From sequence record NZ_CP054002.1: a stretch of 64,000 nt of DNA; one strand, 5' to 3'. This stretch comes from a plasmid. This document shows, piece after piece, positions 3,594 through 23,660 of this stretch. Every line of letters starts with the position of its first letter. The stretch's first letter is position 1. The position numbers and the translations under genes are program-made. Under the pieces are notes generated by a model, which made no database searches, was not told where the DNA came from, and saw only the letters and a program-made list of their open reading frames with translations.

Positions 3594-3614
3594 CGAACCT
3601 TTTTTTAAACTGAA
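3594..3614. repeat. 21-bp terminal inverted repeat (IR) of tra module copy A, left end: CGAACCTTTTTTTAAACTGAA
   Basis: Perfect inverted match to 20555..20575; same IR at 41415..41435 and 58379..58399. Confidence 0.85.
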
Positions 3615-3615
3615 T

Positions 3616-4179
3616 ATGAGATTATTAAAATTAACTTTATTACTAGTGTTATGTGCATGTACACATAGTGTTTATGCACAACGGCATTATGTAGGTATTT
3701 CAGCCCTAGAAGTAAACTATGGATTGAATATTTTTGGTAGGAATAATACTAACTTAAACCTTTCAGTATCAAAGTATAGGAGTCGAACAACTTACTGGAA
3801 AATAGGTTTGAACTATTTTGAAAAGTCTTATAACTACAGTTATGAAAGCAATACTGCGGAAGTTCCAACGATAGTTTCTTTTAGCTCTACAGCAAAAGAT
3901 TACTATATTGATGCTGCTTATTTCAAAACAGTTGCGACAAATCTTTCTTCACTTATTTTAGCCTAGGTCTAGGTCTTTTTACAGGTGTAGAAGCGTACAA
4001 GAGGCAGGATAATAAGTATGATTTCTTACTTGGTTTAAAGATCGAGCCTGAATTAGAATACTTTGTATCTCCACGAGTTGCGATACTTGGACGTGTTAAG
4101 CAGTATTGGAGTCCGTTTAGCTATGCAAGCAAATGGAATACAGTCTGGAATCTTGGTGTTAAAGTCCTTATTTATTGAT
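3616..4179 (+). pseudogene. outer-membrane beta-barrel-like protein with signal peptide; frameshifted here, intact 187-aa version at 57814..58377
   Basis: ORF 3616..3966 matches the first 115 aa of the copy-B protein, then changes frame; the intact copy has the C-terminal ...VKVLIY aromatic end typical of OM beta-barrels. Confidence 0.5.
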
Positions 4180-4364
4180 TATGATATTATTATCAGCTGA
4201 TGTAAGCGCATTGATTGACTTATTCAAACAATGTGGCGAAATGCTAGCCGGTGTCGGATTTGTCTGTGCAGGTCTTGCGGTTATAAAAAAATAATAACTA
4301 ATCATGAGAAAATGAAAGAAGCTATAATTACGTATATCGTTGCATTAGTAATATTTATACTAAT

Positions 4365-4773
4365 ATGGTCGCTTATATAAATATACAAATGACTGAATAT
4401 CTAGCCACTAATTATTCATTATTTGATCTGGCGATAGTTACGATAGTTATTGTTTCAATTCTAATTTTAGGATTGGTCTATTTTTCCGGAAGTAAAAAGA
4501 AACGGAGTGTACAGCTTCACTATCAGTTGAAGAAGAAAAATCTGATTCTGATCTAGTTTTATCTCCACGCATAACAATAGTTTTCAAAAGGATCTTTCAG
4601 ATGATGAAGAATTAAGTAGAGAGATAGCGGATATGTATATTTCAAACCGGGCGTACTATTATGCTGGTAAGATACCACCATTCCAGCATCAAGTACTTTC
4701 GGAAAAATCAGATGATGTTTTTGTCAAATATGAAAGTGTTGATTTTTCCGCTTTAAGCAAGATTGATATATAA
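4365..4773 (+). pseudogene. small N-terminal-TM protein; frameshifted relative to the 130-aa copy-B ORF
   Basis: 63-aa ORF shares the N-terminus MVAYINIQMTEYLATNYSLFDLAIV... with 57235..57627, then diverges. Confidence 0.4.
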
Positions 4774-4810
4774 ATAACATGTATAAAATAACAATTAAAA
4801 TTTTAAGATT

Positions 4811-5131
4811 ATGGTACAAGTTTTGAAAAAGAGTGTAGATTTTGTTAGTGTACACAAGCGTATTATTATGATTTTAGGGCTTTTCCTGCTGACTTTTGTT
4901 GTTGTTCCTCAAGTTGTAGAAGCCCAAAGCGCATTAAAAATTAGCAGTTTGTCCGATGTTGAATCGAAAGCGCAAGAAGGTTCTGATACGATTCTTAATA
5001 TCGCAAAGTATGTATTAGCTGCCGTGCTTGGCATAGCTTTAGTATTTGTGATCTATTCCCTTGCAACGAATATCCCCACGCCAAGGAGTATCTGCTCGGC
5101 TGGATCATTGCGGTTGCGGTTATTATGGTAG
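4811..5131 (+). CDS. TraE-like small pilin-type membrane protein; C-terminus altered by indel compared with copy B
   Basis: Signal peptide or TM plus a second TM (AAVLGIALVFVIYSLATN), as in Bacteroides conjugative-transposon TraE-type proteins. Confidence 0.5.
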   Translation: MVQVLKKSVDFVSVHKRIIMILGLFLLTFVVVPQVVEAQSALKISSLSDVESKAQEGSDTILNIAKYVLAAVLGIALVFVIYSLATNIPTPRSICSAGSLRLRLLW

Positions 5132-5151
5132 CTTTCCTTATTATCTGATTA

Positions 5152-5460
5152 ATGAGGACTATAAGAAAGATAAATAGACCAATTAAGTTCTTTGGCTTAA
5201 CGTCGGGACAATTTGGTCTATTTATGTTGGCAAATGCTTTGATTATAATTGTTTGCATATTTAAGCATGTGCATCCGGTAATCATAGTTAGTGTCATGGG
5301 AGCTATATTCTTTGCTTCAGGTATCTTATTCAAGAACCTAAAACGGGAACATAAAGCTGGCAATCCGGATTATCTAACTGGCTTATCGGTTAGATCTGCA
5401 ACCCCTAAACAGATAATAGATAAACATAAGGTATTCAATTTTATAATGAAGCAGAAATGA
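5152..5460 (+). CDS. TraF-like small membrane protein (102 aa)
   Basis: Two TM helices, position between the TraE-like and VirB4-like genes; identical copy at 56531..56839. Confidence 0.5.
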   Translation: MRTIRKINRPIKFFGLTSGQFGLFMLANALIIIVCIFKHVHPVIIVSVMGAIFFASGILFKNLKREHKAGNPDYLTGLSVRSATPKQIIDKHKVFNFIMKQK

Positions 5461-5591
5461 TCTTGAAATCCTGCGGAATACGTGATACAGATTAAGGCTG
5501 TCGCTTTTTCTTGCAGAGAGTTTATATCTACTATGTGGTAACTAATTACAAAATAAAATGATAGGATTATTATTATATCGGCATTATTACT

Positions 5592-8139
5592 GTGTGGTGT
5601 CATTACATTACTCGCCATACTTTTATGCGTCCTTCTGAAGTTCCTATATCTGATAAATCAATAGATCTTTCGGCTGTACTACCGATCCAGACCATAACGG
5701 ATAGCGTTATAGTAAACGGTAGCGGAGATTTAACCATTGGATACAGATTGTTTCTTCCGGAAGTATTTACTCTTTCGCAGGAAGATGCAAAATATATACA
5801 TGAGAGGTTAGAGGGGCTTTTTAAGATGTTACCTCCTGCAACGGTGGTGCATCAGCAGTGCTTTTACTATGTAAGCCAGTATAAGAACAATGACTTTTCT
5901 GTTAATCCATTGAAAGCGGAAAGTATTAAACACTTTAATAACAAGCAAATAATAAACTGCTATACAAATTTGTATATCACTTTGCCAATACAGATTTGAA
6001 AAAGGGAGTGCGAAAAAAGGCTTCTAATACATCGCTGCTTAAAAAACTCAATTATCCTTTTAAACAGCCCTACAAGAACTATGAAGAAAGGTTATCAGAG
6101 ATTGAACCGAAAATCTTGAATTTTGAAAATGGGTTATCTTCTATAACTCAATTTGAGATAAAGAAGATGGATAGTAAAGACTTAAATAATGCTGTCTTTG
6201 ATTATCTTAATCTCTCGTATGCTAAACCAACAAAAGACGCTACTCAAGAAACAGTTAGCCCAATTATGGTAACTCCTAGCGGTGATCTGAAGGTTGGACA
6301 AGAATATTTAGCGATGCTTTCTCTTACCGTGGAAGGGGAAAATCTTTATGAGCTGAATGTACCCAATACGGGTAAATCAAAAGCGTATGGAAGTACGATT
6401 GAGCTTCCGGAGAATATACAGTCTAAATGTTCTATGTTGTACCCGGTTGGACTAGGTTTGCCTTTCGATCACATTGTAAATGTTGTGATAGAAATAACAG
6501 ATACAGATACTACGCTAACGGCTATTAATGCTGAAAAAACGGGCTAAACTATTTGACTAACTTTTATCCTCCGGCTAAAGACAAGCAAAAACAGCAAGAA
6601 CTTTTCTGTAAAGAAATTACGGATTTTGATTATCAAACAGCTTATACAGCTTTTAATGTGATTATCAATGATCCGGATCGTTCTTCTCTAATTCGGAAAA
6701 TTTCATTGGCACAGCAGGGATTTAGTTTTATGAACCAAAGTTCTTGTTATGTCGAGAATGCGGAGTTGTGCAATTTATTTTTTTCTAATATACCGGGGAA
6801 TGCTCGGAGCAATTATAGGGATTTATCAATACGACCAAACAGGCGATTTGTTATTTGCAAAAAGATAGTATTTATATTTCTGATCTGCAAGGGCATTTGT
6901 ATAATGACCGATTCGGAAATCCTGCATTGATAAATTTATGGAATAACAAGGCTTTAAACAATAGAAATAAAATAGTAATCGGTCCGTCCGGCTCCGGAAA
7001 GTCTTTTGGCTAAACAACTATATTTATCAGTCTTATTCTTTGGGTAATGATATTACAATTATTGACATCGGTGGATCTTACAGGTCTATGATTAGCCTGC
7101 ACCGAGGTAAATATTTTGATTCTACAAATCAGAAACAGTTTGCTTTTAACCCGTTCTTGTGTGAACGTGATCGGAATGGTAGATATATTTATATTGATAC
7201 TTCAGATGCAGAAGCAGCCGAGGATCTTATTAAAACGATCTGTGCTCTTTTATCCTATATCTGGAAACAAAATAAGCCTATCGATCCCACCGAGAAAGCT
7301 ATTCTTAGAAAATCAGTGATCGCATTTTATGAGTATGTAAATAATTCTTCTGTTGATGGAACAAATGAAAGGATTTTTCCTAATCTGATAGAATACCGGA
7401 ATTTCTTGCGAGATGTATTTATTTACAAAATGACTGACTTTGAAAAACGTAGATTTGAGATAGAGGAAGTGCTTTTACTACTAGAACCTTACACGGATGG
7501 AGAACTATCCTTTTTGTTGAACGCAACTGAAAATATTGATATAGTTAACGATGATTTAATTGCGTTTGATATGGAAGACGCAGCAAAGAAGGAGTATTTT
7601 CCTTTGGTAGCGATTATCACGCTTCAAATGGTTATCGATAAGATCAAGAAGCGTGAAGGAGTTAATAAGGAATTGATTATCGATGAAGCCCTAGACTTTT
7701 TAAGTGATGATAAGTTTGGTGATTTTATCGCCTATTTGTATCGTACATTCCGTAAAAAGACGGGGCTATAACGATAGCTGCCCAAAATGTACTGTTCCTG
7801 AAGAACTGTCCACCGGCGATCAAGGATTCAATACTTATAAACTGTGATACTAAAGTAATACTGGATCATTCAAGTTATAGAAAGGAGTTGCCCAATCTGC
7901 GAGATATTCTTTCTATTTCAGAAGAAGAACTAGTAATGATAGATAGTCTGCAAAATAGGGATGATGAGATCAAGTGGAGAGAGTTCTTCATTAAATTGGG
8001 AAACGAAACCTATGTTTTCGCAATGAAGTATCTGAATTTGCCGCTGTCGCTTTTGATTCAAGACAATCGACTGTGGTTAGGCTCAAACAGCTTTTTGAGG
8101 AAACAGGATCTACTTATGCTGCTATTAACCGGTATTTAG
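5592..8139 (+). pseudogene. traG: VirB4-like conjugal ATPase (TraG-type), split into at least 5 ORF fragments
   Basis: Fragments 5592..5999, 5996..6547, 6553..6930, 7040..7771, 7888..8139; the Walker A motif GPSGSGKSF lies out of frame at ~6970..7010 (ORF 54980..55249 of copy B gives ...IVIGPSGSGKSFG). Confidence 0.7.
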
Positions 8140-8157
8140 AAGAAAGGAGAAAAAAAT

Positions 8158-8376
8158 ATGAATGATGCTGTAGAAGGATTGAACCAGATAAAAGGATGGT
8201 CGGGAGAATTTAACAATACGTCTTTTAGTGTGGCAGGGTATATCACCGCTGCAATGTTAGGCGTTTCTCTGATTTTTGTAGTCTGGGCTTTAGCTACAAA
8301 GAAAGATAATGCAAGAACATATCTAGTCGCTTGGTTTGTGGCTTTGATATTTGCGATAGTGTTTATTCTGCGATAA
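8158..8376 (+). CDS. small two-TM membrane protein (72 aa)
   Basis: Hydrophobic segments; identical copy at 53617..53835. Confidence 0.45.
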   Translation: MNDAVEGLNQIKGWSGEFNNTSFSVAGYITAAMLGVSLIFVVWALATKKDNARTYLVAWFVALIFAIVFILR

Positions 8377-8420
8377 TAAATTTATAATATTATGAAAATA
8401 AAGATACTCTTATTTTTTCT

Positions 8421-8989
8421 GTGTTGCTGTTAAGTAGCTCTTTTTCTGTTCAAAAGGCTAGTGCGCAATGGGTTGTTAATGATCCGGCTCACATGGGAAT
8501 GAACCTTGGCGAATGGGGAGCGAATGCAGCGCAATGGGTTAAGCAGCTTAATGAAATGATTGATGCTGCACATATACGAGAAAATTTACAAAAGATAGAC
8601 CAACTACGCCAACTACAATCTTTAGTAGAACTTGCTGAACTGTTGGATGATGTAGCTTGTCTAAGTAGTGATTACCGTTTTTATATGAATATAGGCGGTA
8701 GCTATCATTGTTTAAAGTTTTAAACTTCCAACAAGTTACGGTAAACCTTAATTTGAGCACAGATCTATTATTTAAGGTTGCTACTGTTTCCGACTATTTC
8801 AGCATGAATAGTGAGGGAAGAATGTCCTTTGTCGGACAGGTAAGAGAAGCCTTAGAAACGGCTTCTGCTGAAATGAAATCTTTTAATGAAATAGTAAGAA
8901 GTGAGATCATAAAAGATGCAAGTCGAAAACATGTAGGGAAAACATATTATAGCGGAAATTTATCTGCTTTTAGTCGATATACTAATTAA
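8421..8989 (+). CDS. TraI-like secreted protein; internal frameshift (ORFs 8421..8723 and 8708..8989)
   Basis: N-terminal signal-like segment; copy B has a 163-aa ORF at 53004..53495. Confidence 0.45.
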
Positions 8990-8997
8990 TTAGCCTT

Positions 8998-10002
8998 ATG
9001 AACGGACAAGATACTTTTTTATGGGGATTGCAGATTAATGATTCCCTTACAACAGAATTAACTGCGCAAATGACGGTAATTGCGCTTGGTGTAGCAGTTA
9101 TTTGTTTCATCTGTAATATAGCTTATAATTACCTATATCATGGTGTTAGTCAGCTTTTAACATCGGATGAAAATAAGTTTCCGGATTTGATGGAAATAGC
9201 TCGCTGTTTTGCTTTAATATTCTGTCTTTCGCTATATACACCTATCGCAAAAACTGTCGTTGGAACCCTTGAAGTAATAAATGAAGCAACATCTTTAAGT
9301 TCAGTCCGGGCACAGGAGTTTGCGGCTTTTCTAGACAGATCAGCGGAAGAACAGCACACCATGATAGCCGATAATGAAAAAACGGCACTTGAAGCGGAAG
9401 TCGCTGCGGGGGAAGATCCGGAAGGTGCTATGAATAAAGAACTACAAAATATAGATCAAGGTAATAAAATAGATGAAAGTGCATCTACATTGAAACAAAT
9501 CTCCCAAATATTAAATCCTGCCAATTTCGCAGCAATGCTCTTACATGCTCTAGCCGCACTGCTGGTCGGGATTGTACAAATTATCATATTGGGTTTGGGC
9601 GTTGTCATTGTAAAGATCCTTGTCATATTAGGTCCCTTCGTTTTTGCTTTTTCCATTCTACCGGTATTCCAAAAGCAGCTGTCTAATTGGTTTGGTACAC
9701 TGTGTTCCGTTGGTATGGTATTTACTGTGATTAATATTTTAAATCAGATAATGTGGTTTACATTTAAGTCAATTTATGATTCTGACGCATTCAACGCAGT
9801 AGATGAAGCGACAAAACAGCTACAATATTTAGGCATGGATCTTGCTTTGATCGGTTCTTATTGTTGTTGTTTCTGGTTGGCAAGTAAGATAGTCGGTCAT
9901 GGTGATGCCGGTAGAATCATTTCTAAAACGGTATCTATTGTAACTGCTGCTGCAACGATGGCGATTGCAGGATCAGCGATAGCAGGGGGGCTACAAATGT
10001 AG
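8998..10002 (+). CDS. traJ: TraJ-like polytopic inner-membrane protein; C-terminal end shifted relative to the 350-aa copy B
   Basis: ~340 aa with several TM helices; position after the TraI-like gene. Confidence 0.6.
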   Translation: MNGQDTFLWGLQINDSLTTELTAQMTVIALGVAVICFICNIAYNYLYHGVSQLLTSDENKFPDLMEIARCFALIFCLSLYTPIAKTVVGTLEVINEATSLSSVRAQEFAAFLDRSAEEQHTMIADNEKTALEAEVAAGEDPEGAMNKELQNIDQGNKIDESASTLKQISQILNPANFAAMLLHALAALLVGIVQIIILGLGVVIVKILVILGPFVFAFSILPVFQKQLSNWFGTLCSVGMVFTVINILNQIMWFTFKSIYDSDAFNAVDEATKQLQYLGMDLALIGSYCCCFWLASKIVGHGDAGRIISKTVSIVTAAATMAIAGSAIAGGLQM

Positions 10003-10055
10003 GGGCTGCTGCTTCATTAGGTAAAAGTGTTATAGATAACGAAGAATAAATAAAT

Positions 10056-10685
10056 ATGAATCTTACAAAATTTAAAACAGTGGATCAGGCTTTTAAAACA
10101 ACTGTGATTGTTGCATCTTCTTGTTGTCTGATTATGGGTATTGCATTTACTGTCTGTTTCTTCTATTTGTCAAACAAGATAGATGCGGCTTATACGAAGG
10201 CTTTAGTACTTGATACTTCAGGACAGGTTTACGATGTTGCAGCCATTGAATCCGCAGCGATGCGAAAGTATGAATATGAAAATCATATCAAAACATTTGT
10301 TTCGCTGTGGTACTCCTTCGATGAAAGCACTTATGAGAATAACGTAACATTAGCTCTTAATTTGATTGGTAATCGAGGAAAAGAGCTTTACAACGAATAT
10401 AACGATATTAATATGCTTAATTCTTTGATTCAGAAAAATATACGCTATGGCGTTATAATCAAGGATATACATATCAATATGCAAACAGTTCCGATATCCG
10501 GGGATATACTGTTTACGCAAACCGGCTATCGTGCTAGGGGGAGCGTAGCACGTGATATTTCTGTGAACTTTACTCTATATGATGTATCTCGATCACGTGA
10601 AAACTCTCACGGTGTTAAAATCGAAAGCTGGGACGTTCGATATTCGGAACCACGAGAAATAACAGATGAAGAAAAATTAAAATAA
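10056..10685 (+). CDS. traK: TraK-like protein (209 aa, N-terminal TM)
   Basis: Size, single N-terminal TM, and order between TraJ and TraM as in CTnDOT-type tra operons. Confidence 0.55.
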   Translation: MNLTKFKTVDQAFKTTVIVASSCCLIMGIAFTVCFFYLSNKIDAAYTKALVLDTSGQVYDVAAIESAAMRKYEYENHIKTFVSLWYSFDESTYENNVTLALNLIGNRGKELYNEYNDINMLNSLIQKNIRYGVIIKDIHINMQTVPISGDILFTQTGYRARGSVARDISVNFTLYDVSRSRENSHGVKIESWDVRYSEPREITDEEKLK

Positions 10686-10715
10686 TGGAGCTATGGGAAA
10701 CTTTTAAGAGAAGCG

Positions 10716-12001
10716 TTGAAGGACAAAAACAAATTGTTAATGTTAGTACCTCTGCTTTTGGGCGTACTGTTTGTAATAGTTTTCTTTGGTAAAAAAGAAA
10801 AACCGGCTGAATCAGCATCCAATACAGAAGAAGTGAATCAGGCTTTTCTTGAACCGGACACAGAAGGAGAAAAGAAGATCGCTAATAAGGTAGATGCTTA
10901 TAAACGTGAACAAGAAGAAGCTGCTCGTAAGAAACGTGAATTGGAAAAATCACAAGTAAAAGGAAGCGATTTCTATTTTGAAATGCAGACATCCGAAGAC
11001 GAATACAACGAGAAAATGAAAGCTCGTATTGAAAAAATGAAGAAAGATCCATTGGACGAAGTTACTAGCGAATACAAGGAGCGAGGAAAAAAATCTAACA
11101 GTGCATTTTCTGATAAAATGCGCCAACAACTAAATGATATTGAGGATCAAGAAACCTTTAATCAGATAGTCAAGGAAGCAAAGAAAGAGGAAAGAATACG
11201 CAAAGAGCTAGAAGAAAATGCAAGATTCCGGGATGAAATGAGAAAGAAATATCAGGATCAAGCATCAGGAAAAGATATAGAGAAATCTCAAGAGAATATT
11301 TTCCGAAAGTAAATGATTCTGTTCCTAAAGTTGAGAAAGCTTCAAAGCCGACTTTTATAGTGGAAAATGGAAAACGGCGTCGCCGGTCACAGTTTACTAT
11401 TGACCAAAAAGTCAATCTTATCAAAGCTGCTATTTATGGAGATCAGACCATTGTTAGTGGAAGTGCTGTCCGGATGCGCTTGTTAGAGCCTTTATGGGTT
11501 GGTGGCGTTGAGATCCCTGCAAATACGATCTTCTACGGAAATGCTAGTGTCGGCTCTACTCGTTTGAAAATTACGGTAGAGAACATACGATATGGGAAAT
11601 ATATAAGTCCTGTCGCTTTTACTATTTATGATTCTGATGCGATTGAGGGATTGAATTTACCCAATAACATGAAAGCTGAAGCTGCTCGAAAAATGGAACA
11701 GGGCTTGCTTCAAGGCGTGCAGCTTCCGATTTCTTCTATTGGCACAGTAACAAGTGAGGTAACTAGTGCGATCACAGCCACTACACAGGTTACTAGACAA
11801 ATTTTAAATCAAAGCCTTTCTCAAGTAAAGGTTCATTTAAAAGCTAACTATAATATGTATATCAAGGAAGAAACTAATGAAGACAGAAAAAAGAGAGAGG
11901 AAGAAGAAGCTGAAATAGAACGTCTGTATAGAGAAATGCAGATGCAGCAGAATGAACCAAAGAAAAAGAATCCTTTAACCCAACTAATTGAAGCATTATA
12001 A
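10716..12001 (+). pseudogene. traM: TraM-like coiled-coil protein, frameshifted (198 aa + 213 aa)
   Basis: Copy A breaks at ~11300 in a T-run that is one T shorter than in copy B; copy B breaks elsewhere (352 aa + 94 aa). Confidence 0.55.
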
Positions 12002-12180
12002 TGATAATTGATATACTTAATTTTATGGTAGCTGTAGCTACTGTATTTTTGGCTTATAGGTTCTTTATAGAACGCTCTAAAGGGAAAAAGATAGCAGAAA
12101 TGAAAGTACTGATGTATAGTTTAATATCTTGTTTCGTTCTGCTTTGGATTATAAATATTTTTATTGGTTTTGTAAAATGA
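12001..12180 (+). CDS. 59-aa small membrane protein, translationally coupled between traM and traN
   Basis: ATG overlaps the traM TAA (TAATG) and its TGA overlaps the traN ATG (ATGA); C-terminal TM helix (YSLISCFVLLWIINIFIGFV); identical copy at 49811..49990 (-); just under the 60-aa track threshold. Confidence 0.4.
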   Translation: MIIDILNFMVAVATVFLAYRFFIERSKGKKIAEMKVLMYSLISCFVLLWIINIFIGFVK

Positions 12181-13259: not shown

Positions 13260-13263
13260 TGTC

Positions 13264-15075
13264 ATGAAGCTACAAGAGGTTCTAACAGAATATCAATATA
13301 ATAATGTCGGGCAATTTAGGGCGATTGCGGAAAGTTTAGGTTACAAAGAAGCCTATAACAAGGGTTCTTTGCTTTTTACCCGGAATGACGAAGTATTTCG
13401 TATCGATATGGATAAGATACGTTCACACACAAAGCGAGAACCGGATTTATCTGCGGAAAAGGCTTCTATGGATCGTGTTTGCCAGTTCTTTAATCGGGAT
13501 CAGGCTTTATCTCCCGACTATAAAAGCGTATTAAAAAATGAAGGGGTTGATATTGTTAACTGGGGTGATCTAAAAAATGATGCCAAAGATCGTTTTACTG
13601 TGATCGATCATAAAAATAAAATCTGTTATACCGGAAAAGAACTATATGAGTATGCTTTGCAAAATGGTTACTCGTTAGACGGGAAAGGCACAAAGTTAGA
13701 GAAGGGTGTATTATCCGGATTAATGGATATCAATGGTAAACCAGCTAAAGTTCGGTTGCATGAACACGGTACTTCTATTATATATAGGAAGGAAGCGTTA
13801 ACCATACCGGATCGCATTTACGGAAAGAAATTATCGAAGCAACAGAAGCAAGATCTACTTGATGGCAATGTGATAGTCTTGTCAACAAAAAAAGGAGATA
13901 TACTTCTTCAGGTCGATAAGGATCTCAACGCTGTGGTGGTACGTTCGGAAAAAGAATTGTCTGTTCCTGCTAAAATTGGAGATTACGAATTGACCGCAGC
14001 AGATAAGTATCTTTTAGCGAATGGTCATTCTTTAGATAACAAAATGATCCACACTCCTGAAGGTTACATAATTACAGATATAGCTATGCTTCCGGATAAG
14101 AAAGGATATGCTTTCTCAAACATCCAGAAAATATCGGAAACAAAGGCACAGCAGATTTTACAGGCAAGAGAAATGGCAAAGGATAAAGAGTATCTTAATG
14201 ATAAGCTAAAGGATATGCAGCGTACCGGAAAAATCGATATAGACGAGTTGAAGGATAAAAGGTATGAGCAATTAATAAACAGCCATTTTGCCACAGAACA
14301 TAAGGAATACCTATCTTATCTGAAAGATGAAAATCCGGATAAAAACTATAATTATGATCTTGAAGCACGCATTAGGTTAAAGGCTGGGGATATGTTAGAA
14401 AAAGAAGGAATAATCGCCAAAGGTACAACTGAAAAGGAATTGAAAGAAGAAGGCTTTAAAGTCGAGAAGATCCGGGAACAATATCAGGAGAAAGTAACGG
14501 GTAAGGATCCTGTTCCTGATCGAGATCTTGACAAGGAGTTAAGAGAAGCCGTTGTCAAGAATGACTATGAAAAAATAGCTAGTTTGAAAGAGGAAGGTTA
14601 CAAGCCTTCAGAGGAAGTTATTAGAGGTTTGGGACAAGATACAAAGATTGATCAGACGCAAGCTATCGTTATAGAAAAACTATTTGGGATGAAACCTGAA
14701 GTGCAAAAAGCGGAAGAAGTAACACAAGCAAAGGAAGAATCCAAAGAAGCAAAGGTAGAGCTTAATGCTGATCCTGCTAGTGCTAAGGTTTCTCCGGAAC
14801 TAGATAAAGAATTTAAAGAAGCAGTAGAGAAAGGCGATTTTGTAAAGATGTCACAACTGAAGGAACAAGGCTATCAACCTTCCAAAGAGTTGATTCAGTC
14901 TTTGAATGAAACTGCATCTGGCAATACGATGATAGCCGTTCAGAAGATATTTAATCTGAAAGGCTCTGCTAATACGCTCGGAGATGTTAAGCTAGCACAA
15001 GGTCAACAAAGTGCAGAAAAAGATCTAAAGCGTCCTCTCGCCAATACGGTAAATAAAATGTTTGCCGATTTATAA
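13264..15075 (+). CDS. 603-aa conjugative-element protein with two tandem copies of the shared ~55-aa C-terminal module
   Basis: Repeat 1 (...KNDYEKIASLKEEGYKPSEEVIRGL...IVIEKLFGMK) and repeat 2 (...KGDFVKMSQLKEQGYQPSKELIQSL...MIAVQKIFNLKGSANTLGDVKLAQG). Confidence 0.7.
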   Translation: MKLQEVLTEYQYNNVGQFRAIAESLGYKEAYNKGSLLFTRNDEVFRIDMDKIRSHTKREPDLSAEKASMDRVCQFFNRDQALSPDYKSVLKNEGVDIVNWGDLKNDAKDRFTVIDHKNKICYTGKELYEYALQNGYSLDGKGTKLEKGVLSGLMDINGKPAKVRLHEHGTSIIYRKEALTIPDRIYGKKLSKQQKQDLLDGNVIVLSTKKGDILLQVDKDLNAVVVRSEKELSVPAKIGDYELTAADKYLLANGHSLDNKMIHTPEGYIITDIAMLPDKKGYAFSNIQKISETKAQQILQAREMAKDKEYLNDKLKDMQRTGKIDIDELKDKRYEQLINSHFATEHKEYLSYLKDENPDKNYNYDLEARIRLKAGDMLEKEGIIAKGTTEKELKEEGFKVEKIREQYQEKVTGKDPVPDRDLDKELREAVVKNDYEKIASLKEEGYKPSEEVIRGLGQDTKIDQTQAIVIEKLFGMKPEVQKAEEVTQAKEESKEAKVELNADPASAKVSPELDKEFKEAVEKGDFVKMSQLKEQGYQPSKELIQSLNETASGNTMIAVQKIFNLKGSANTLGDVKLAQGQQSAEKDLKRPLANTVNKMFADL

Positions 15076-15125
15076 TTAATAGATTTTTCCGAAAGTAAAA
15101 ATGTTATCACTTAAAAATAAATATC

Positions 15126-15314
15126 ATGGAAGATTACAACAAATTGGTAGAAAAGAATCAGACTGGAGAGATTGACGATCTTGAATTTTTATTAGCTCAA
15201 GAAGATTTAGCGGCTCTCTACGTTGCGGATATGCAAGCTGAAGGAGTTAGCCCGAATGCGGAAAACGCTGCTGAATGGTTGCTAAAATATGAAAATGAAC
15301 ACCTTTATCAATAA
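15126..15314 (+). CDS. 62-aa acidic hypothetical protein
   Basis: ORF conserved in both T copies; tightly packed before the ardC-like gene. Confidence 0.4.
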   Translation: MEDYNKLVEKNQTGEIDDLEFLLAQEDLAALYVADMQAEGVSPNAENAAEWLLKYENEHLYQ

Positions 15315-15317
15315 GTC

Positions 15318-16628
15318 ATGGATGGTCAGGCAAATGATAAGGCTCTGCAAAAATTTGCGGATCTTATGGTTAAGAAACTTACGGAAGTCGATGCGGATTG
15401 GCATAAACCTTGGTTTACAACAACAGGATATGGATTACCACAAAATATTGATGGGCGTGTTTATAATGGAATCAATTCCTTCATGCTTTTTCTTCTTCAA
15501 GAGGAACGTAGTTTCCAGACACCTGTATATATGACTTTTCCGCAAGCAAAGAAACAAGGGCTTCACATAAACAAAGGAGCATCGGCTTTTCCTGTCCTAT
15601 TTTGGAATTTTATGATTAAAGACGATAAGGGGAATAAAATTTCGATGGATGATTATAAGGCTTTGACTAAGGAAGAGCAGAAAGAATATACCGTTATTCC
15701 TTATACTAAACCTTATCACGTGTTCAATGTTGATCAAACAAACTTTGCGGAAGTATATCCGGAACAATGGAAGGCATTGAAGGATAAATTTAGTTGTCCT
15801 AAATTGAAAGATGAGCAGGGAATGTTTTCATCGCCAGAGTTGGATCACATGATAAAACACGGTACATGGTTATGTCCTATTATTTCTTCTTTCTCTGACA
15901 AGGCTTTTTTTCGTCCTTCAGAGGACAAGATATATTTACCCCTTAAAGGTCAATTCTATACAGGAGAAGGATTTTATAGCACATTGTTACATGAGATGGC
16001 ACATTCAACCGGTATAGATACCCGTTTAGGACGTGAAATGAAAAACATGTTTGGTGATCCCAAATATGCAAAAGAAGAATTAATCGCAGAATTTACCGCT
16101 GCTGTTTCTTGCCGTTCTCTAGGTATCGTTTCCGGAGTCCGGGAAGAAAACGCACAGTATTTAAAAAACTGGCTCGGAGCGATCAAAAAAGAACCTAAAT
16201 TCCTCTATTCCGTATTAGTTGATGTAGGTAAGGCTAGCACTATGATTTTGAATGAAGTCTGCAAGTATGAGTTATTGAAGAAGGAAGAACAGGAAAAGCA
16301 ACAGGAAGAATGCAAGCATATAGAGAATAAAAAAGTAGATGATAGCAAGGATTTTTCTGAAACCCGGAATGATGAAAAATTATCACCAGCTTTTAATATA
16401 GCTCTAGCTGCTGCGCTAGCCGGTTCGTTTAAGGAATTGGTTAACCTAAAGGAGCAGGGATATAAACTGTCTGCAAAGGAACTTGATGCGTTAAAGGATG
16501 CAGATCCGAAAATATATATTGCCGCACAGAATATATTTAATATAAAGTTGGATGATCCTACTCCTTCCCTACAATTTTCCGAATCAAAAAATAAAAATGA
16601 AGTCAAACAATTATCTTTAAATTTTTAG
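15318..16628 (+). CDS. ardC: ArdC-like antirestriction protein: N-terminal ssDNA-binding domain plus HExxH metalloprotease, with the shared C-terminal module
   Basis: N-terminal WFTTTGYGLPQNIDGRVYNGINSFMLF matches the ArdC N-domain signature; LLHEMAHSTG zinc-metalloprotease motif; C-terminal ...FKELVNLKEQGYKLSAKEL... Confidence 0.8.
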   Translation: MDGQANDKALQKFADLMVKKLTEVDADWHKPWFTTTGYGLPQNIDGRVYNGINSFMLFLLQEERSFQTPVYMTFPQAKKQGLHINKGASAFPVLFWNFMIKDDKGNKISMDDYKALTKEEQKEYTVIPYTKPYHVFNVDQTNFAEVYPEQWKALKDKFSCPKLKDEQGMFSSPELDHMIKHGTWLCPIISSFSDKAFFRPSEDKIYLPLKGQFYTGEGFYSTLLHEMAHSTGIDTRLGREMKNMFGDPKYAKEELIAEFTAAVSCRSLGIVSGVREENAQYLKNWLGAIKKEPKFLYSVLVDVGKASTMILNEVCKYELLKKEEQEKQQEECKHIENKKVDDSKDFSETRNDEKLSPAFNIALAAALAGSFKELVNLKEQGYKLSAKELDALKDADPKIYIAAQNIFNIKLDDPTPSLQFSESKNKNEVKQLSLNF

Positions 16629-16631
16629 CGT

Positions 16632-16928
16632 ATGTTTATAGGTCATGTTACGGGTTATCTTGGATCAGATGCCAAGAAAACACAGAAAGGTTATTCATTC
16701 AATGTTTCCACTAAATATAAAGAGGGAAACGAAGAAAAAACGTTGTGGATCTGTTGTTTCTTAAATTACGAAACAAAGGTTGCGGAGTTTTTAAAAACAG
16801 GAACTATGGTTCATGTGTATGGGGAAATCACTGTCGGTATCTTTAAGCGTGATACTGGTGATACAGTCCCTTCAGTAACTATGAGTGTAGATAAGGTTCA
16901 ATTACTCTCTAGCAAGAATAAAGAATAA
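16632..16928 (+). CDS. ssb: SSB-like single-stranded-DNA-binding OB-fold protein (98 aa)
   Basis: Pattern ...TLWICCFLNYETKVAEFLKTGTMVHVYGEI... resembles the SSB OB-fold core. Confidence 0.5.
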   Translation: MFIGHVTGYLGSDAKKTQKGYSFNVSTKYKEGNEEKTLWICCFLNYETKVAEFLKTGTMVHVYGEITVGIFKRDTGDTVPSVTMSVDKVQLLSSKNKE

Positions 16929-18883
16929 TGGAACCAGCAAAGAAGGAATTATCATTTGTCTTTATATTGCTTTCCGTAATAATCGGGGGTGTGATAATCT
17001 TTCAGTGGGTTTTGGTGAATGATCTTTGTTCACCAAGCCCAGCTGTATTATTGCAGTTGGGAAAGTTTTTACGCAAAGCTATTATGTTTCGATTCCTATA
17101 TGTAGTATTATTAGCTGGGTTGGCTTTCCTATTCCCTGTACAAAAGAGAAGAGATGAATCCTTGAAATATGTATATACTGCCACTACATTAATCTTAGCA
17201 ATAGCCCTAATATTAGGCTTCAGTAATGTTCTATCATGGTACAATTTATTAGTTTTTCCGATAGTATTTATAGGATTTACAATACTAGTTATCCAAACAG
17301 CCGGTTTTTACCTTAAACGGCATGTGGTATCTGATAAATCTATCTTTGGTGTATCACATGAAAAATCAGAGTTTTATTTTGATTTTGAAACAGTAGAAGG
17401 AAATCTTAGAATCCATAAGCCACAGCAAAATCTTTATATTGACGGTGGTCCGGGATCTGGAAAATCGGAAAGCTGGATTAAAGGCATCATCTATCAATGT
17501 GCAGAGCGTAACTATGCCGGATTTGTATATGATTGGGAAGGAGATCCTAGTAAACCGGGTTCACCTATTTTGTCCCGGATCGCATACGGTAGTATAGAAT
17601 ATTTTAAGAGAAAAAATGTACCTACACCAGCCTTTGCTTTCATAAATTTTGTAGACATGTCCCGGACGGTTCGTGTTAATGTACTTTCGGAAAAATATGT
17701 CCCTAAAGGAAGCGAATCCTTGTTTATTCGTAATATCGCTACTACCTTAATGAAAAACCTTGAAAGTTCATGGAAGGAAAAAACTGATTTCTGGGCGAAC
17801 AATGCGATTAACTATGTATATTCAATTGCTTATAAATGTTACAAAGAACGAGCAAAGGGAATAGGAACTTTACCCCATGTAATCGCTTTTGCATTATCAG
17901 ATAGTGATCTGGTCTTTAAATGGCTCTCTGAGGATGCGGAAATTGCGCTAAACATGTCTTCCATGTTAACCGCATGGCGTTTAGGCGCACAGCAGCAGAC
18001 CGCTGGTGCGGTATCTTCCGCACAGACTCCGCTTGTTTTGCTTAACAATAAATACATCTTTTGGGTTCTATCACCACTTCCGGAAGAAGAATATTCACTA
18101 GATATAACTAATCCGGATCATCCTACACTATTGTGTATAGGCAATGCTCCTTCAATTAAAGAAGCTGTATCTCCTCCTGTTAGTTGTATCGCTAGCGTTG
18201 TCATGTCGCAAATGAATAATCCCGGCAAACAAAAGAGCGTTTTTATGGTGGATGAATTTCCAACGGTAAATTTGCAAGGTATAGATGTATTTATAGGTAC
18301 AGCACGTAAACACAATGTAGCTACAATCTTAGCCGTACAGGACTTTAATCAAGCAATCCGGGATTATGGAGAGAAAAGTGCAAATATCCTGCGATCTTCT
18401 TGTGGTAGCCAAGCCTATGGAATGACCGGTAACGAAAAGACAGCAAAGGATCTAGAAAATCTTTTGGGAGAAACGAAAGAAGCACAGGAATCGTTCTCAC
18501 ATCAAGAATCCGGTACTGGAAGCATGACCGAATCTCTGCAAAAGGAGAAAGTAGTAAAGGCTCGTGAAGTTGCCGGACAAAGTGTTGGTCACTTCATCGG
18601 AAAGGTCGCTGGCGGAAAACCACCTTATTTTAATACACAATTTAATATGTGTAAGTTTATAGATAAGGATATTCCGGCTTTTTCCAAACCTGTAAATTTG
18701 GGAGATGGCAAAGAAGAATTAGAGTATGATATAATGGAAGAAATAGTTAGTCAACATTATCTTTCAATCATTTCAAAAGTAAATGCGATCTTGGAAGATG
18801 TAAAGAATAAGACAGAAACGGACAATAAAAATAAGGAAAAAAACATGCCGAAAGATCATAATCATAAGGCATGGAAGGAATAA
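16928..18883 (+). CDS. type IV coupling protein (VirD4/TraG/TraD family, 651 aa)
   Basis: N-terminal TM helices, P-loop GGPGSGKSES, Walker B-like FMVDEFP; identical copy at 43107..45062. Confidence 0.8.
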   Translation: MEPAKKELSFVFILLSVIIGGVIIFQWVLVNDLCSPSPAVLLQLGKFLRKAIMFRFLYVVLLAGLAFLFPVQKRRDESLKYVYTATTLILAIALILGFSNVLSWYNLLVFPIVFIGFTILVIQTAGFYLKRHVVSDKSIFGVSHEKSEFYFDFETVEGNLRIHKPQQNLYIDGGPGSGKSESWIKGIIYQCAERNYAGFVYDWEGDPSKPGSPILSRIAYGSIEYFKRKNVPTPAFAFINFVDMSRTVRVNVLSEKYVPKGSESLFIRNIATTLMKNLESSWKEKTDFWANNAINYVYSIAYKCYKERAKGIGTLPHVIAFALSDSDLVFKWLSEDAEIALNMSSMLTAWRLGAQQQTAGAVSSAQTPLVLLNNKYIFWVLSPLPEEEYSLDITNPDHPTLLCIGNAPSIKEAVSPPVSCIASVVMSQMNNPGKQKSVFMVDEFPTVNLQGIDVFIGTARKHNVATILAVQDFNQAIRDYGEKSANILRSSCGSQAYGMTGNEKTAKDLENLLGETKEAQESFSHQESGTGSMTESLQKEKVVKAREVAGQSVGHFIGKVAGGKPPYFNTQFNMCKFIDKDIPAFSKPVNLGDGKEELEYDIMEEIVSQHYLSIISKVNAILEDVKNKTETDNKNKEKNMPKDHNHKAWKE

Positions 18884-18920
18884 AAGAGGTATTTTTGTGA
18901 AAATATAAAAAAAATAATAT

Positions 18921-19400
18921 ATGAAAAGTAGGATATTGATAGTTTTATTATTTGCCTTATCTTCGTGTGGATCAACTGAATATGAAAAGGCAATAGCGGA
19001 TTGGCTTCAAACCGATGAAAACGGTACTTGGACTGATCTTAAGTTTGAATTGATAGAGTTGCTTGACGAAAAAGATGTTACAGTTTCCGACAGCTTATTG
19101 TATTTGGATAGTAAAGCTGCTCAACAGGTACAGATGATAGAAAGAGCGGAGAATCCTCGTGCTTTGGTAAAACCGCTTTTCTCTGATTACACCAAGGCTA
19201 AAGATAATTTAAAATGGATAGAGAAAAAGAAAATGGAGTATAAGGATAGAGATAGTACGGAGGTGTTAGCCAAACTATTGAAATGCAAGTATGCAATTGT
19301 TCCACCTAGTTTAAAGGCTAGGCAGGAGAGAGTTGGCGAGTTTTTACTCGCTCCCGATATGAAAACGTGCTGGGGAAGGATGAAAGCTACGACTAAATAA
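18921..19400 (+). CDS. lipoprotein (159 aa)
   Basis: Signal peptide plus lipobox (LLFALSSCGS). Confidence 0.5.
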   Translation: MKSRILIVLLFALSSCGSTEYEKAIADWLQTDENGTWTDLKFELIELLDEKDVTVSDSLLYLDSKAAQQVQMIERAENPRALVKPLFSDYTKAKDNLKWIEKKKMEYKDRDSTEVLAKLLKCKYAIVPPSLKARQERVGEFLLAPDMKTCWGRMKATTK

Positions 19401-19517
19401 GAAAAATATGAAGGTTCAGTTTTTTAAAGATTTTAGCAAGTTATCAGAAACGAGCGATTTGTTTATTGTAGAAACAGATCAATTTGGGTTTATTGATGGC
19501 AACGGCAATAGCTATTT

Positions 19518-20045
19518 TTGATAGCAGAGAAAATTTCTAGAAAGAAAAATATAAGGGTTTGTTTACTTTACATACACATGGATCTGAATTTAAAATATAT
19601 AAAGATGATGAAAAAAATTAAGCTGCATTTGTTTGCGTTATGTGCTACTCTAGTATTAGTTTCTTGTGGTGGATCGGATGATGATCCTGTTTTTAATAAT
19701 ACATCTGCTGTATATAAGGTAGTATTAGAGGCTTCAGGGGATGATTATACAGCTGAAGCTATTATTATTAATCCGGATAACGTATCAATTATAGATGAAA
19801 CAAGTAACACAGACCTAAAACAAAGTTCTGTAACGGAGTATTTTAGCGGACGGAAAGTTTATATAACCTCTAAAGAAGTGAAGGTTATTTCTGCTCAAGG
19901 GATTATTCTTAGCAAAAGTAAGTCCGGTGCTATATTGAAAATGACAGTGTATCAGGATGGAAAAGAGGTCTATCAAAATACAGTTTCCGTTCCGGATTCA
20001 GAGAATAATACAAAGTCTATACAATATACTAATATAAAGAACTAG
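19518..20045 (+). CDS. lipoprotein (likely start at MMKKIKLHLFALCATLVLVSCGG)
   Basis: Lipobox LVSC; identical copy at 41945..42472. Confidence 0.5.
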   Translation: MIAEKISRKKNIRVCLLYIHMDLNLKYIKMMKKIKLHLFALCATLVLVSCGGSDDDPVFNNTSAVYKVVLEASGDDYTAEAIIINPDNVSIIDETSNTDLKQSSVTEYFSGRKVYITSKEVKVISAQGIILSKSKSGAILKMTVYQDGKEVYQNTVSVPDSENNTKSIQYTNIKN

Positions 20046-20048
20046 ATT

Positions 20049-20540
20049 ATGGATAACCAAACGGCTATAACATTGAAGCCCAAACTAGGTTATTGGGTTT
20101 CAAAGTATTTTGTGATAATTGTTGTCGCATCTTTACTCCCGTTCTCTGCTATTTATTGGGATTTAGAAATGCCTGTACACTATGCGTTAATGGTGCTGTT
20201 TTTAGTCGTTTGGATTATGTTGTGTTACACATATATAGACACGCTGTTTGCTACAAAGTGGATTATTACTAAGGATGAACTGATTTTCAGGCATGGTATA
20301 ATCTCAAGACGAGAGGAACATTTAGAATTATATAGAGTGATTGATTATTCAGAAAAACAAAATTTCTTGCAATTAGTATTTGGCAACAAGACAGTGAAAG
20401 TTATATCAGGTGATGCTTCCGATCCTATTTTATATATGTATGGGATTGATCGGAATATTCCTATTATAGATACTTTGCGTGATAGAGTCAAAATTGCAAG
20501 GAAAGAAAGCGGAATTTTTGAAGTAGCAAATAGATCTTGA
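20049..20540 (+). CDS. membrane protein with a bacterial PH-like (YdbS/YdbT-type) domain (163 aa)
   Basis: Two N-terminal TM helices followed by a soluble domain; last gene before the right IR. Confidence 0.45.
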   Translation: MDNQTAITLKPKLGYWVSKYFVIIVVASLLPFSAIYWDLEMPVHYALMVLFLVVWIMLCYTYIDTLFATKWIITKDELIFRHGIISRREEHLELYRVIDYSEKQNFLQLVFGNKTVKVISGDASDPILYMYGIDRNIPIIDTLRDRVKIARKESGIFEVANRS

Positions 20541-20554
20541 AAAAGGAAAAAAAC

Positions 20555-20575
20555 TTCAGTTTAAAAAAAGGTTCG
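20555..20575. repeat. 21-bp terminal IR of tra module copy A, right end: TTCAGTTTAAAAAAAGGTTCG
   Basis: Perfect reverse complement of 3594..3614. Confidence 0.85.
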
Positions 20576-20644
20576 TTATATTGAATGCAAAATTCAAATA
20601 AATATTTAAAACAGCAAAAATTTTGTGGTTAAATATTGTAATTT

Positions 20645-20851: not shown

Positions 20852-21002
20852 TTCTTTAATATTAAAAAATGTATATATAGTTTAATGTATCAAAAAATCG
20901 AATGTTATATAACTTATATATGTTATATATATTGTATATGTTATATATCTTTGTTGGGCGATTAATTCATGCAAAGATATAGATTATTAATTTAAAACAT
21001 AA

Positions 21003-21574: not shown

Positions 21575-21583
21575 TAATTTATT

Positions 21584-23632: not shown

Positions 23633-23660
23633 TTTCAAATAATAAGAAAGGAGTAATAAT

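Follow-up and report, generated by a model that had tools for sequence, protein, structure and literature searches.

The conjugation (tra) module of this plasmid lies between two inverted 28-bp sites and, as judged from assembled sequences, occurs in nature in both orientations. Site-specific inversion of the entire conjugation operon by the adjacent serine recombinase is well supported, because contigs with the flipped junctions were assembled independently, the palindromic site is conserved, and the breakpoints of natural variants fall on the AA core. The window (the whole 64,000-nucleotide stretch analyzed here, from plasmid record NZ_CP054002.1) is probably best read, with some reserve, as an assembly walk through a mixed-orientation population of a circular Bacteroides plasmid of ~37.8 kb, on which a recombinase termed rec-U would flip the tra switch.

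The 21-mer CGAACCTTTTTTTAAACTGAA has four exact copies in the window (3594, +; 20555, −; 41415, +; 58379, −), against a chance expectation of 0. A search of the window allowing up to two mismatches found nothing beyond these four. The 21-mer marks every end of two 17-kb tra modules that are identical but oppositely oriented. Relative to the P sequence that follows it (P2), copy A (3594..20575, +) is oriented as in the public plasmids; it is 99.8% identical to CP103200. The flipped copy (41415..58399, −) is the reverse complement of copy A. The initial annotation had described two opposite modules, each bounded by this repeat, and this description holds. Positions 1-20596 are mirrored by 41394-62041 with 99.54% identity, 5 mismatches, and 86 gap openings. 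Apart from a third P copy, the whole window is one large inverted repeat whose arms are separated by a spacer of 20.8 kb.

Three of the four outer flanks are the same P sequence, while the fourth (41341-41414, termed the U flank) is unique and abuts the recombinase gene at 40741-41340, as initially annotated. The U and P flanks align without gaps for the first ~25 bp only, and the outer flanks do not align across recombinase lineages. An inverted-repeat arm reaching ~21 bp beyond the 21-mer was ruled out, as the flanks match imperfectly (~19 of 25 bases).

The backbone (B, composed of P and U; 20576..41414, +) carries a 68-amino-acid gene, the replication, partition, and mobilization genes, a resistance insert, and rec-U. 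It includes RepA (21584-22777), 32-bp iterons representing oriV (22782-23037), the serine recombinase rec-P (23954-24541) beside ParA (25392-26087), and MobC/relaxase (26590-28313). These are followed by an insert with an erm methyltransferase gene and tet(X) at 30.4-32.7 kb, and the backbone further carries Toprim and AbiEii. The iterons are 2.2 kb from one crossover site and 18.4 kb from the other. A look-up of the tet(X) ORF (31509-32675) returned matches to unrelated resistance islands only.

Two further P copies lie outside the modules. P1 (1..3593, −) is an inverted partial copy, and P3 (58400..64000, +) is a direct repeat of P2 after the flipped module. Relative to P2, P1 has 0 substitutions and 61 gap openings, mostly in homopolymers, and P3 has 0 substitutions and 13 gaps; across all repeat copies, the differences are almost solely homopolymer indels. 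Gap columns against CP103200 number 12-27 per kb at 1-4 kb, which includes P1, and 1-4 per kb at 4-13 kb. Within the 13-53 kb core, most bins show 0-1 per kb, and the figure is 1-5 per kb over 53-64 kb (1-4 per kb in P3), with the exception of the 58-59 kb junction bin. Because P1 differs by no substitutions and mostly by homopolymer gaps, its differences are read-consensus errors. Biological decay was rejected for P1, which the initial annotation had called degraded. P1 is most likely the low-coverage end of the assembly walk, derived from other-strand reads of orientation-2 molecules.

The module genes lie on a single strand and include traO, a DUF3875 TraG-like ATPase, TraJ-, TraK-, TraM-, and TraN-like genes, DUF3945, an ArdC-like zincin, SSB, the T4 coupling protein, a PLCC lipoprotein, and a PH-domain gene. 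Gene models before ~13 kb are broken up by indel errors. The first gene of the module is traO (57814..58377, −, in the flipped copy), which encodes a 187-amino-acid lipoprotein and has its ATG 2 nucleotides past the 21-mer and 6 nucleotides past the 28-bp site. Assignment to the CTnDOT-like Bacteroidetes type IV secretion systems (T4SS) uses the annotation of CP103200 and CP103219 together with Pfam matches on contig genes (DUF3875/P-loop_TraG, CtnDOT_TraJ, Transposon_TraM, DUF4138, TraO, and T4SS-DNA_transf). The set found comprises TraG (DUF3875), TraJ, TraK, TraM, TraN (DUF4138), a TraO-like protein, and the coupling protein.

Although the 21-mer marks the module ends in four exact copies, the functional repeat is a 28-bp site composed of two 13-bp half-sites around an AA core (3583-3610, 20559-20586, 41404-41431, and 58383-58410). 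The site beside rec-U (41404..41431, +) reads ATTTATTAAAACG-AA-CCTTTTTTTAAAC. The site on the P, or replication, side (20559..20586, −; copies at 3583-3610, +, and 58383-58410, −) reads ATTCAATATAACG-AA-CCTTTTTTTAAAC. Both are summarized as ATT(T/C)A(T/A)TA(A/T)AACG-AA-CCTTTTTTTAAAC and form an inverted pair of imperfect palindromes with the same core. The 21-mer starts with the CG and AA core of the site, spans the inner half-site, and runs 4 bases beyond it. A dyad search centered within the 21-mer found weak symmetry only; the true center is the AA at 21-mer positions 3-4, which became evident only after comparison with other lineages. In the L080 lineage, the site is a 12-of-13 dyad, GTTTAATAAAACG-AA-CGTTTTTTTAAAC. 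The palindromic site is kept beside recombinases of 100, 70, 67, and 56% identity, whereas the remainder of the intergenic region is not.

The breakpoints of four variants that arose naturally by deletion or fusion (L028, L029, L041, and L058) intersect on the AA. Two of them (L028 and L041) trace to pseudo-sites within the module that share the AA. The sole match to the 21-mer in a scan of a genome collection (L003) has no other similarity to the window and was discarded as chance.

The candidate invertase, rec-U (40741..41340, −), is a small serine recombinase of 199 amino acids that diverges from its site, 74 bp away. It has a catalytic YARVSTPDQ motif and a C-terminal HTH, with Pfam matches to Resolvase (7e-39) and HTH_7. 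Its best PDB matches are Gin invertase chains 4m6f and 3uj3 (6e-39), compared with 4e-24 for gamma-delta resolvase; Gin invertase is the best match of the recombinases. The order of rec-U, site, and traO is retained in four lineages, with the site between a Gin-like recombinase gene (56-100% identical) and traO. We infer that rec-U, rather than rec-P, is the probable invertase. Membership of rec-U in the Mpi family (NCBIfam NF009949) was rejected, as it scores 86.1 bits (rec-P, 52.5 bits), far under the equivalog cut-off of 272.

Comparison with related genomes, a check proposed in the initial annotation, located the inverted sites in relatives and the flipped junctions in four independent public assemblies. 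CP103200 and CP103219, the public plasmids nearest to this one, have one tra copy in orientation 1. This orientation is that of the majority of contigs as well. Orientation 2 is present in the window and in L006, L030, L035, and L062/L076, of which L006 belongs to a lineage of ~90% identity. Outside the window, the junction of the U flank with the PH-domain end of the module (U|site|PH) is found in L006, L030, and L035, and the P|site|traO junction is found in a k=141 contig (L062/L076). An unbiased metagenome scan counted 15 U|traO, 7 PH|P, and 1 U|PH junctions. An inverted 29-bp site pair and just one such recombinase are also present on a 117-kb plasmid of B. ovatus, where the promoter-like box of the P flank and its 12-nucleotide spacing are conserved. 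A PLSDB search for copies of the B. ovatus plasmid returned that single record only.

An orphan Bacteroides-type promoter-like box, TTTG-N19-GAATTTTG, lies in the P flank (20588..20618, −) and points into the module. It ends 12 nucleotides ahead of CGAACC, lies 27 nucleotides downstream of the stop of the 68-amino-acid gene, and does not vary across all P flanks examined. Its copies are at 58412-58442 (−) and ~3551-3580 (+, with a 1-nucleotide error). A weaker box, TTTG-N17-GATTTTTG, lies in the U flank (41374..41402, +) and likewise ends 12 nucleotides ahead of CGAACC. Its last G is G, A, T, or C in natural variants, and its counterpart is absent from other lineages. The strict Bacteroides promoter motif occurs four times, always in B and never in the module. 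The relaxed form of the motif has eight matches in each monomer, including both inward-facing flank boxes.

The conserved 68-amino-acid gene (20645..20851, −; copy at 3319-3525, +) reads toward the P-side site; in P3, a read error shifts its reading frame. In the B. ovatus plasmid, the corresponding position is occupied by a 135-amino-acid gene, each half of which is 72% identical to the 68-amino-acid protein, and Pfam and NCBIfam gave no match to this protein. It is possibly an accessory factor or the product of the first gene of the "on" operon.

The proposed switch consists of the backbone (rep-par-mob-rec) and the tra module. Gin-like rec-U, encoded 74 bp from one site, would cut both sites at AA and invert the module relative to the backbone. 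The tra operon would be transcribed from the flank, since traO starts 2-6 nucleotides past the site and no strict-consensus promoter motif is present in the module. In the common orientation 1, traO would face the rec-U flank, without a conserved promoter, and tra would be off or expressed at a basal level. In orientation 2, which is rare, the orphan promoter conserved in the P flank would lie upstream of traO, and tra would be on. The predicted outcome is phase-variable conjugation, in which the operon flips and the promoter stays in place. The on/off part is suggested by the positions of the boxes and of traO; given the box in the U flank, the switch might instead swap two promoters rather than silence tra. 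Orientation 2 could also be a rare stable rearrangement and not frequent phase variation, though it is present in at least four sequence backgrounds.

The initial annotation had offered inversion, or capture or duplication of the operon, as explanations of the two modules. Inversion is favored by the flipped junctions found elsewhere, the palindromic site, and the AA breakpoints. Capture or duplication lacks support: relatives are single-copy, the copies differ by sequencing-type indels only, which are denser toward the window ends, and the junction set fits no monomer or dimer. The junctions within the window are P|traO, PH|P, U|PH, and traO|P, with three P-ends and no U|traO. Orientation 2 is represented in full by the flipped copy, which has the U flank on one side and P3 on the other (U|PH...traO|P). 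Within one molecule, this set would require at least three backbone copies. A simple fold-back read had been rightly excluded, but an unphased walk through a mixed-orientation population had been overlooked, and this fits best. The sample probably held both orientations, and the assembler would have walked P'-A-P-U-A'-P through the 17-kb module with its ends unphased. On this reading, the second tra copy and the additional P copies would not belong to one real molecule.

Were both tra copies real, the window would represent a rearranged multimer of at least three units, in which the same recombinase joined sites of different units. A variant of this is amplification by a double rolling circle like that of the 2-micron plasmid, in which inversion during replication reverses one fork. 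The U|PH and PH|P junctions both lie within the error-free core, serine recombinases are able to fuse or invert between any pair of sites, and the unequal distances from the iterons to the sites (2.2 and 18.4 kb) give the asymmetry required by the Futcher model. An isolate contig (JANUNX010000006.1), 100% identical to the window over 6.6 kb, is also longer (54,767 bp) than the 37.8-kb monomer. Such a multimer is nonetheless unlikely, as it needs three P-ends in one molecule and its copies lack real substitutions. Public assemblies of the plasmid are mostly contigs of 20-50 kb, errors become denser toward the window ends as in low-coverage contig ends, and orientation 1 is far predominant, not part of a near-equal isomer mix. 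In the boldest form of the idea, the inverted sites and recombinase would be a bacterial counterpart of 2-micron Flp/FRT: inversion during theta replication from the iteron origin would start a double rolling circle, yielding copy-number amplification or transfer-ready concatemers, and P'-A-P-U-A'-P would be a real snapshot of scrambled multimers. This analogy we regard as very improbable.

It is quite doubtful that the recombinase and its sites serve mainly in multimer resolution, as a stability function, with tra inversion a tolerated by-product of no regulatory role. Dimer resolution is a frequent role of small serine recombinases encoded beside replication or partition genes, identical sites become direct repeats in a dimer, orientation 1 predominates, and the same enzyme evidently also produces the pseudo-site deletions. 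However, one site per monomer suffices for resolution, yet a second inverted site is kept in two plasmid families with recombinases 56% identical. The monomer has its two sites in inverted orientation, and neither shows the three-subsite res architecture, each being instead a single 28-bp hix-like palindrome. Resolution also leaves the fixed spacing of the traO start and the P-flank box to the site unexplained, and the separate rec-P beside ParA could act as resolvase. A reading without site-specific inversion, in which the flipped junctions come from artefacts (chimeric or fold-back reads, or assembly errors across the short inverted repeat) or from homologous recombination between inverted P copies, is largely refuted and scarcely credible. 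The window does come from a noisy long-read assembly, and the 3.6 kb of inverted P sequence flanking copy A could support RecA-mediated flipping. The junctions, however, fall exactly at the site in every case and recur in short-read contigs of the 90% lineage and of unrelated samples, for which the assembly k-mers exceeded the repeat in length; a fold-back or chimeric read was rejected on these grounds. The single-copy public plasmids have no inverted P copies, and the site, recombinase, and breakpoints fit one serine-recombinase picture.

The proposed inversion switch resembles Hin/hix (the Salmonella flagellar switch) and Gin/gix (the G segment of phage Mu). These too have a small serine recombinase with a C-terminal HTH, encoded beside the segment, and two inverted sites with half-sites of ~12-13 bp around an asymmetric AA core. 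Crossover in hix and gix is at the central 2-bp core. In both, inversion alters a promoter-gene relation, as is proposed here. The segment here is 17 kb, half of the plasmid, versus 1-3 kb (105 kb versus 11.6 kb for the segments of the B. ovatus relative), the promoter would be fixed while the whole T4SS operon flips, and rec-U scores well under any curated equivalog cut-off. Inversion by Hin and Gin typically requires a Fis-bound recombinational enhancer; we know of no Fis homologue in Bacteroides and of no Fis/enhancer system in the host.

Mpi, the master serine invertase of B. fragilis, shares the host group, the recombinase superfamily, and phase variation by inversion. It inverts short promoter segments at many chromosomal loci and has a different repeat consensus, whereas here one plasmid-borne site pair has its recombinase linked in cis. 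The R64/IncI shufflon (Rci) is likewise a site-specific inversion on a conjugative plasmid that affects conjugation. There, a tyrosine recombinase acting at numerous 19-bp sfx sites rearranges the 3' end of a single pilin gene, pilV, and thereby changes recipient specificity. Here, the recombinase is of the serine type, and the monomer has just two sites, which lie between genes and enclose the entire transfer operon. In 2-micron Flp/FRT and the beta-recombinase/six system of pSM19035, two inverted sites also halve the circle, with the origin near one site. Flp belongs to the tyrosine recombinases, its repeats measure 599 bp, and its isomers are present in roughly equal amounts, and streptococcal pSM19035 has very long inverted duplications; the sites here are 28 bp, and one isomer is dominant.

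No description of inversion of this tra operon was found in open-access sources, which is not proof of novelty. The inversions reported in the pMMCAT preprint are tyrosine-recombinase eps promoter inversions only, and transfer is given there as ~1e-8, varying strongly among mice. If correct, the proposed switch could account for low and erratic transfer frequencies. Through a heritable and reversible flip of the entire T4SS operon, conjugation would become a bet-hedging trait; such a switch would offer a handle for locking transfer on or off and would extend serine-invertase switches to payloads of 17-105 kb. The plasmid is among the commonest of the human gut, because the exact rec-U and 68-amino-acid proteins are indexed in ~23,000 and ~29,000 blocks, respectively, of a public assembly collection, and in the window it bears the erm methyltransferase gene and tet(X). 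The site pair also accounts for the over-length inverted-repeat contigs that long-read assemblers produce for these plasmids.

The window contains two copies of the 17-kb single-strand tra module in opposite orientations, one at 3594-20575 (A, plus strand) and one at 41415-58399 (A', minus strand). The ends of both are formed by the 21-nucleotide repeat CGAACCTTTTTTTAAACTGAA, which is present four times (3594+, 20555-, 41415+, and 58379-) with a chance expectation of none. The backbone is composed of a replication-side flank (P) and a flank (U) that carries the serine recombinase rec-U (40741-41340). An inverted copy of P precedes A (P1', 1-3593), a second copy of P, not inverted, lies between A and U (P2, from 20576, with U extending to 41414), and a third, a direct repeat of P2, follows A' (P3, 58400-64000). 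The unit from the start of P2 to the start of P3 is 37,824 bp. The backbone harbors a 68-aa gene, RepA, 32-bp iterons, a second serine recombinase (rec-P), ParA, MobC, a relaxase, an erm/tet(X) insert, Toprim and AbiEii genes, and rec-U. The eight to nine tandem iterons (22782-23037, also 60601-60824 and approximately 1218-1435) directly follow the Rep3-type repA and are presumably oriV; the recombination site on the P side is 2.2 kb away.

Four junctions are defined here. J1 (U-site-traO) and J2 (PH-site-P, PH being the PH-domain gene end of the module) make up orientation 1, and J3 (U-site-PH) and J4 (traO-site-P) make up orientation 2. Inversion of the tra module, one of the readings offered in the initial annotation, is real and recurrent, with flipped junctions found in independent data. 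When public metagenome contigs were scanned for exact matches, 23 loci emerged, of which 15 are J1, 7 are J2, and 1 is J3. The J3 locus, L006, is colinear with the window through the junction for 1,650 bp. Its lineage shares just ~90% identity with the window and also includes a J1 locus, L017. Look-up by exact protein located J3 in two further contigs, L030 and L035 (the latter from an isolate), and J4 in L062/L076, a MEGAHIT contig assembled at k=141. This k-mer far exceeds the repeat length, and reads must therefore span the J4 junction. Linked polymorphisms differ among L030, L035, L006, and the window, so the flip arose repeatedly. Among the assembled junctions, some 4-8% are of orientation 2, with the protein look-ups skewed to the longest contigs. 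One further locus (L032, JGI 3300014808) has a 10-N run at 2910-2935, exactly inside the recombination site (CGAAC-N10-GAACC), a position that would fit a break in the assembly graph where the sample contained both orientations. The U region of the L062/L076 contig (ERZ27953925 k141_125853, 160 kb, orientation 2) is interrupted by an IS21-family element followed by reverse transcriptase, methyltransferase, and alpha-L-fucosidase genes. This suggests integration in a chromosome or larger element, or a chimeric contig.

The presence of two module copies in the window looks like assembly rather than biology. The window junctions are J4 (reversed), J2, J3, and J4, which gives three P-ends, and J1 is not among them. 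This set is impossible from a monomer or dimer, and a real molecule requires at least three backbone copies. The walk P1'-A-P2-U-A'-P3 would be a path through a bidirected assembly graph built from a population with both orientations. Such a graph allows precisely this path, since the two ends of A cannot be phased by reads under 17 kb. In the self-comparison, 1-20596 and 41394-62041 are inverted copies with 99.54% identity, separated by 5 mismatches and 86 gap openings. No mismatches separate P1 from P2 (61 gap openings) or P2 from P3 (13 gap openings), and 82 of the 92 indel columns are in homopolymer context. In comparison with the closest public plasmid, the density of gap columns is 12-27 per kb in 1-4 kb of the window, 1-4 in 4-13 kb, and 0-1 in most bins of 13-53 kb, where two bins that contain real sequence differences reach 12-13. 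There are 1-5 per kb in 53-64 kb, apart from the junction bin at 58-59 kb, which has 11. This profile is the signature of a long-read consensus with depth dropping toward the contig ends, and P1, previously described as degraded, therefore reflects read noise. Comparison with related plasmids, as the initial annotation had advised, identified two circular relatives, each with one tra copy in orientation 1: CP103200.1 (33,962 bp, 99.8% identical over A) and CP103219.1 (35,266 bp, 99.3%). The 21-nucleotide repeat is perfectly kept in the ~90%-identity lineage of L006. With single-copy relatives, and copies that differ mainly by homopolymer indels, the proposed capture or duplication of the operon is not upheld. 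A real scrambled multimer is an unlikely source of the window. In its favor, J2 and J3 both lie within the clean core, and the isolate contig JANUNX010000006.1, which matches the window at 100% identity across 6.6 kb, exceeds one monomer at 54,767 bp.

The recombination site overlaps the repeat and is a 13+2+13 palindrome with an asymmetric AA center, located at 3583-3610, 20559-20586, 41404-41431, and 58383-58410. No additional copies are present in the window at two or fewer mismatches. Between rec-U and traO, the site is the only element alignable across recombinase lineages. Given as site and traO start, it reads TTTATTAAAACG-AA-CCTTTTTTTAAACTGAAT-ATG in the window, TTCAAATAAACG-AA-CGTTTTTTTAAACTGCTT-ATG in L077 (rec-U identity 70%), GTTTAATAAAACG-AA-CGTTTTTTTAAACTGTGCCT-ATG in L080 (67%, dyad matching at 12 of 13 positions), and GTTCATTAAAACG-AA-CGTTTTTTTAAACTATGCCT-ATG in the B. 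ovatus plasmid NZ_CP041396 (56%). Four natural rearranged variants have breakpoints (shown as a slash) within the 21-nucleotide repeat. L028 (U...AAAACGAA/GAATAAAT) is a deletion to a pseudo-site, GATAACGAA/GAAT, at window position 10044, and L041 (P...ATAACGAA/CGTTATAATC) is a deletion to AATCAA/CGTCATAATC in traN. L029 (U...AAAACGAA/CGTTACC) fuses the site to a second tra-like module known from larger variants, and L058 joins foreign sequence (...GATATG/AACCTTTTTTT). The ambiguity intervals of the four breakpoints share only AA, positions 3-4 of the repeat. These derivatives arose by recombination between the site and pseudo-sites. Two have lost module DNA, either the initial 6.4 kb or the final ~7.6 kb, and two are fused to tra-like DNA of foreign origin. 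Besides inverting the transfer region, the recombinase appears to reshape and erode it. The partner DNA of the L029 fusion is a second, different tra-like cluster (PLCC, M23 peptidase, DUF4138, and TraM-like genes), found in the U region of four contigs of 54-65 kb (L069, L071, L073, and L075). In CP103200.1, a 17-bp deletion at 17500-17515 within the rec-U-side site (CGAACC/TGAGATT) takes out the inner half-site along with the native start codon (ATG) of traO. This plasmid may be a naturally locked, tra-defective variant, or the record may contain a consensus error.

Both rec-U (199 aa) and rec-P (195 aa) are serine recombinases with a C-terminal HTH and share 43% identity. For each, the match to Gin invertase is much stronger than that to the gamma-delta or Tn3 resolvases (6e-39 versus 4e-24 in the case of rec-U). 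The Mpi equivalog was ruled out at 86 bits for rec-U and 52 bits for rec-P, relative to a cut-off of 272 bits. In every case found, rec-U lies ~90-110 bp from the site and is divergent from traO. The rec-U-type recombinase is the sole one on the 117-kb B. ovatus plasmid, where a perfect 29-bp inverted pair, 11.6 kb apart, surrounds a rec-toprim-relaxase-ParA backbone. Inversion is therefore assigned to rec-U, the probable invertase of the tra module. It is plausible that rec-P, which adjoins ParA, is a dimer resolvase.

The start of traO is 2-6 nucleotides past the site in every lineage. The strict Bacteroides promoter consensus (TTTG-N17-21-TAnnTTTG) has four matches per monomer, all in the backbone at sensible places (e.g., upstream of mobC), and none in A. 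The relaxed form (nAnnTTTG) has eight per monomer, two of which are flank boxes that end exactly 12 nucleotides before CGAAC and point into A. The P-flank box, TTTG-N19-GAATTTTG, is unchanged in all P flanks seen and lies downstream of the 68-aa gene stop. It would be an orphan promoter in orientation 1, because only the 3' end of convergent genes lies ahead. The B. ovatus plasmid has this box with identical spacings (TTTG-N19-GACTTTTG-N12-CGAAC). By hand alignment, ~41 of 50 bases of the two P flanks are identical, and the neighboring 68-aa proteins are 72% identical, above the recombinase conservation. Its invariance, orphan position, B. ovatus likeness, and conserved neighbor suggest that the P-flank box is meaningful. 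In the U-flank box, the spacer is short (N17) and the critical last G is variable, all four bases being found among natural variants; the other recombinase lineages compared have no counterpart of this box. The variable position (window 41395, 22 nucleotides before the AA core, GATTTTT followed by G, A, T, C, or an extra T) lies just beyond the half-site and, in plasmids that are otherwise near-identical, stands out as a polymorphic hot spot.

The simplest model, each step of which we infer, is a two-state switch. Orientation 1 would leave tra without a good promoter. Orientation 2 would place traO behind the P-flank promoter, with read-through of the tra operon into rec-U, and conjugation would be expressed in a small, reversible subpopulation. 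Reported transfer of pMMCAT is very low and varies from mouse to mouse, which fits this model loosely but does not count as evidence for it.

By mechanism, the system is probably a Hin/Gin-type serine invertase switch, to judge from the type of recombinase, the architecture of the sites, their inverted pairing, and the occurrence of both isomers. The hix and gix sites are likewise palindromes around an asymmetric 2-bp center. In contrast to Hin and Gin, the payload is a whole T4SS operon of 17 kb (or, viewed conversely, the backbone is what inverts, relative to as much as 105 kb), the promoter would be fixed while the operon moves, and the carriers are very prevalent gut plasmids. The Mpi inverton, shufflon, and res system do not apply. 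A search of open-access literature found no description of a tra-operon inversion of this kind.

Several other backbone features were identified. The resistance insert (30439-32675), missing from CP103200, contains an Erm-type 23S rRNA methyltransferase ORF (30439-31296, plus strand) beside a tet(X)-type FAD monooxygenase (31509-32675, minus strand). The identical tet(X) protein is present in many chromosomal islands and plasmids across Bacteroidota. Three minus-strand genes in a row (a 307-aa ORF, the Toprim gene, and the AbiEii gene) each have at the 3' end a copy of a ~190-nucleotide repeat, 83-92% identical (35905-36095, 37404-37594, and 38692-38882), and share a C-terminal module of ~60 aa. 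Two copies of a 48-nucleotide GC-rich element beginning GCCTCCGGCGGGGTTTTCGCCGGGGGGC (34040-34087 and 35384-35431) are 1.3 kb apart in the AT-rich U region. With a hairpin and T-run, this element looks like a terminator.
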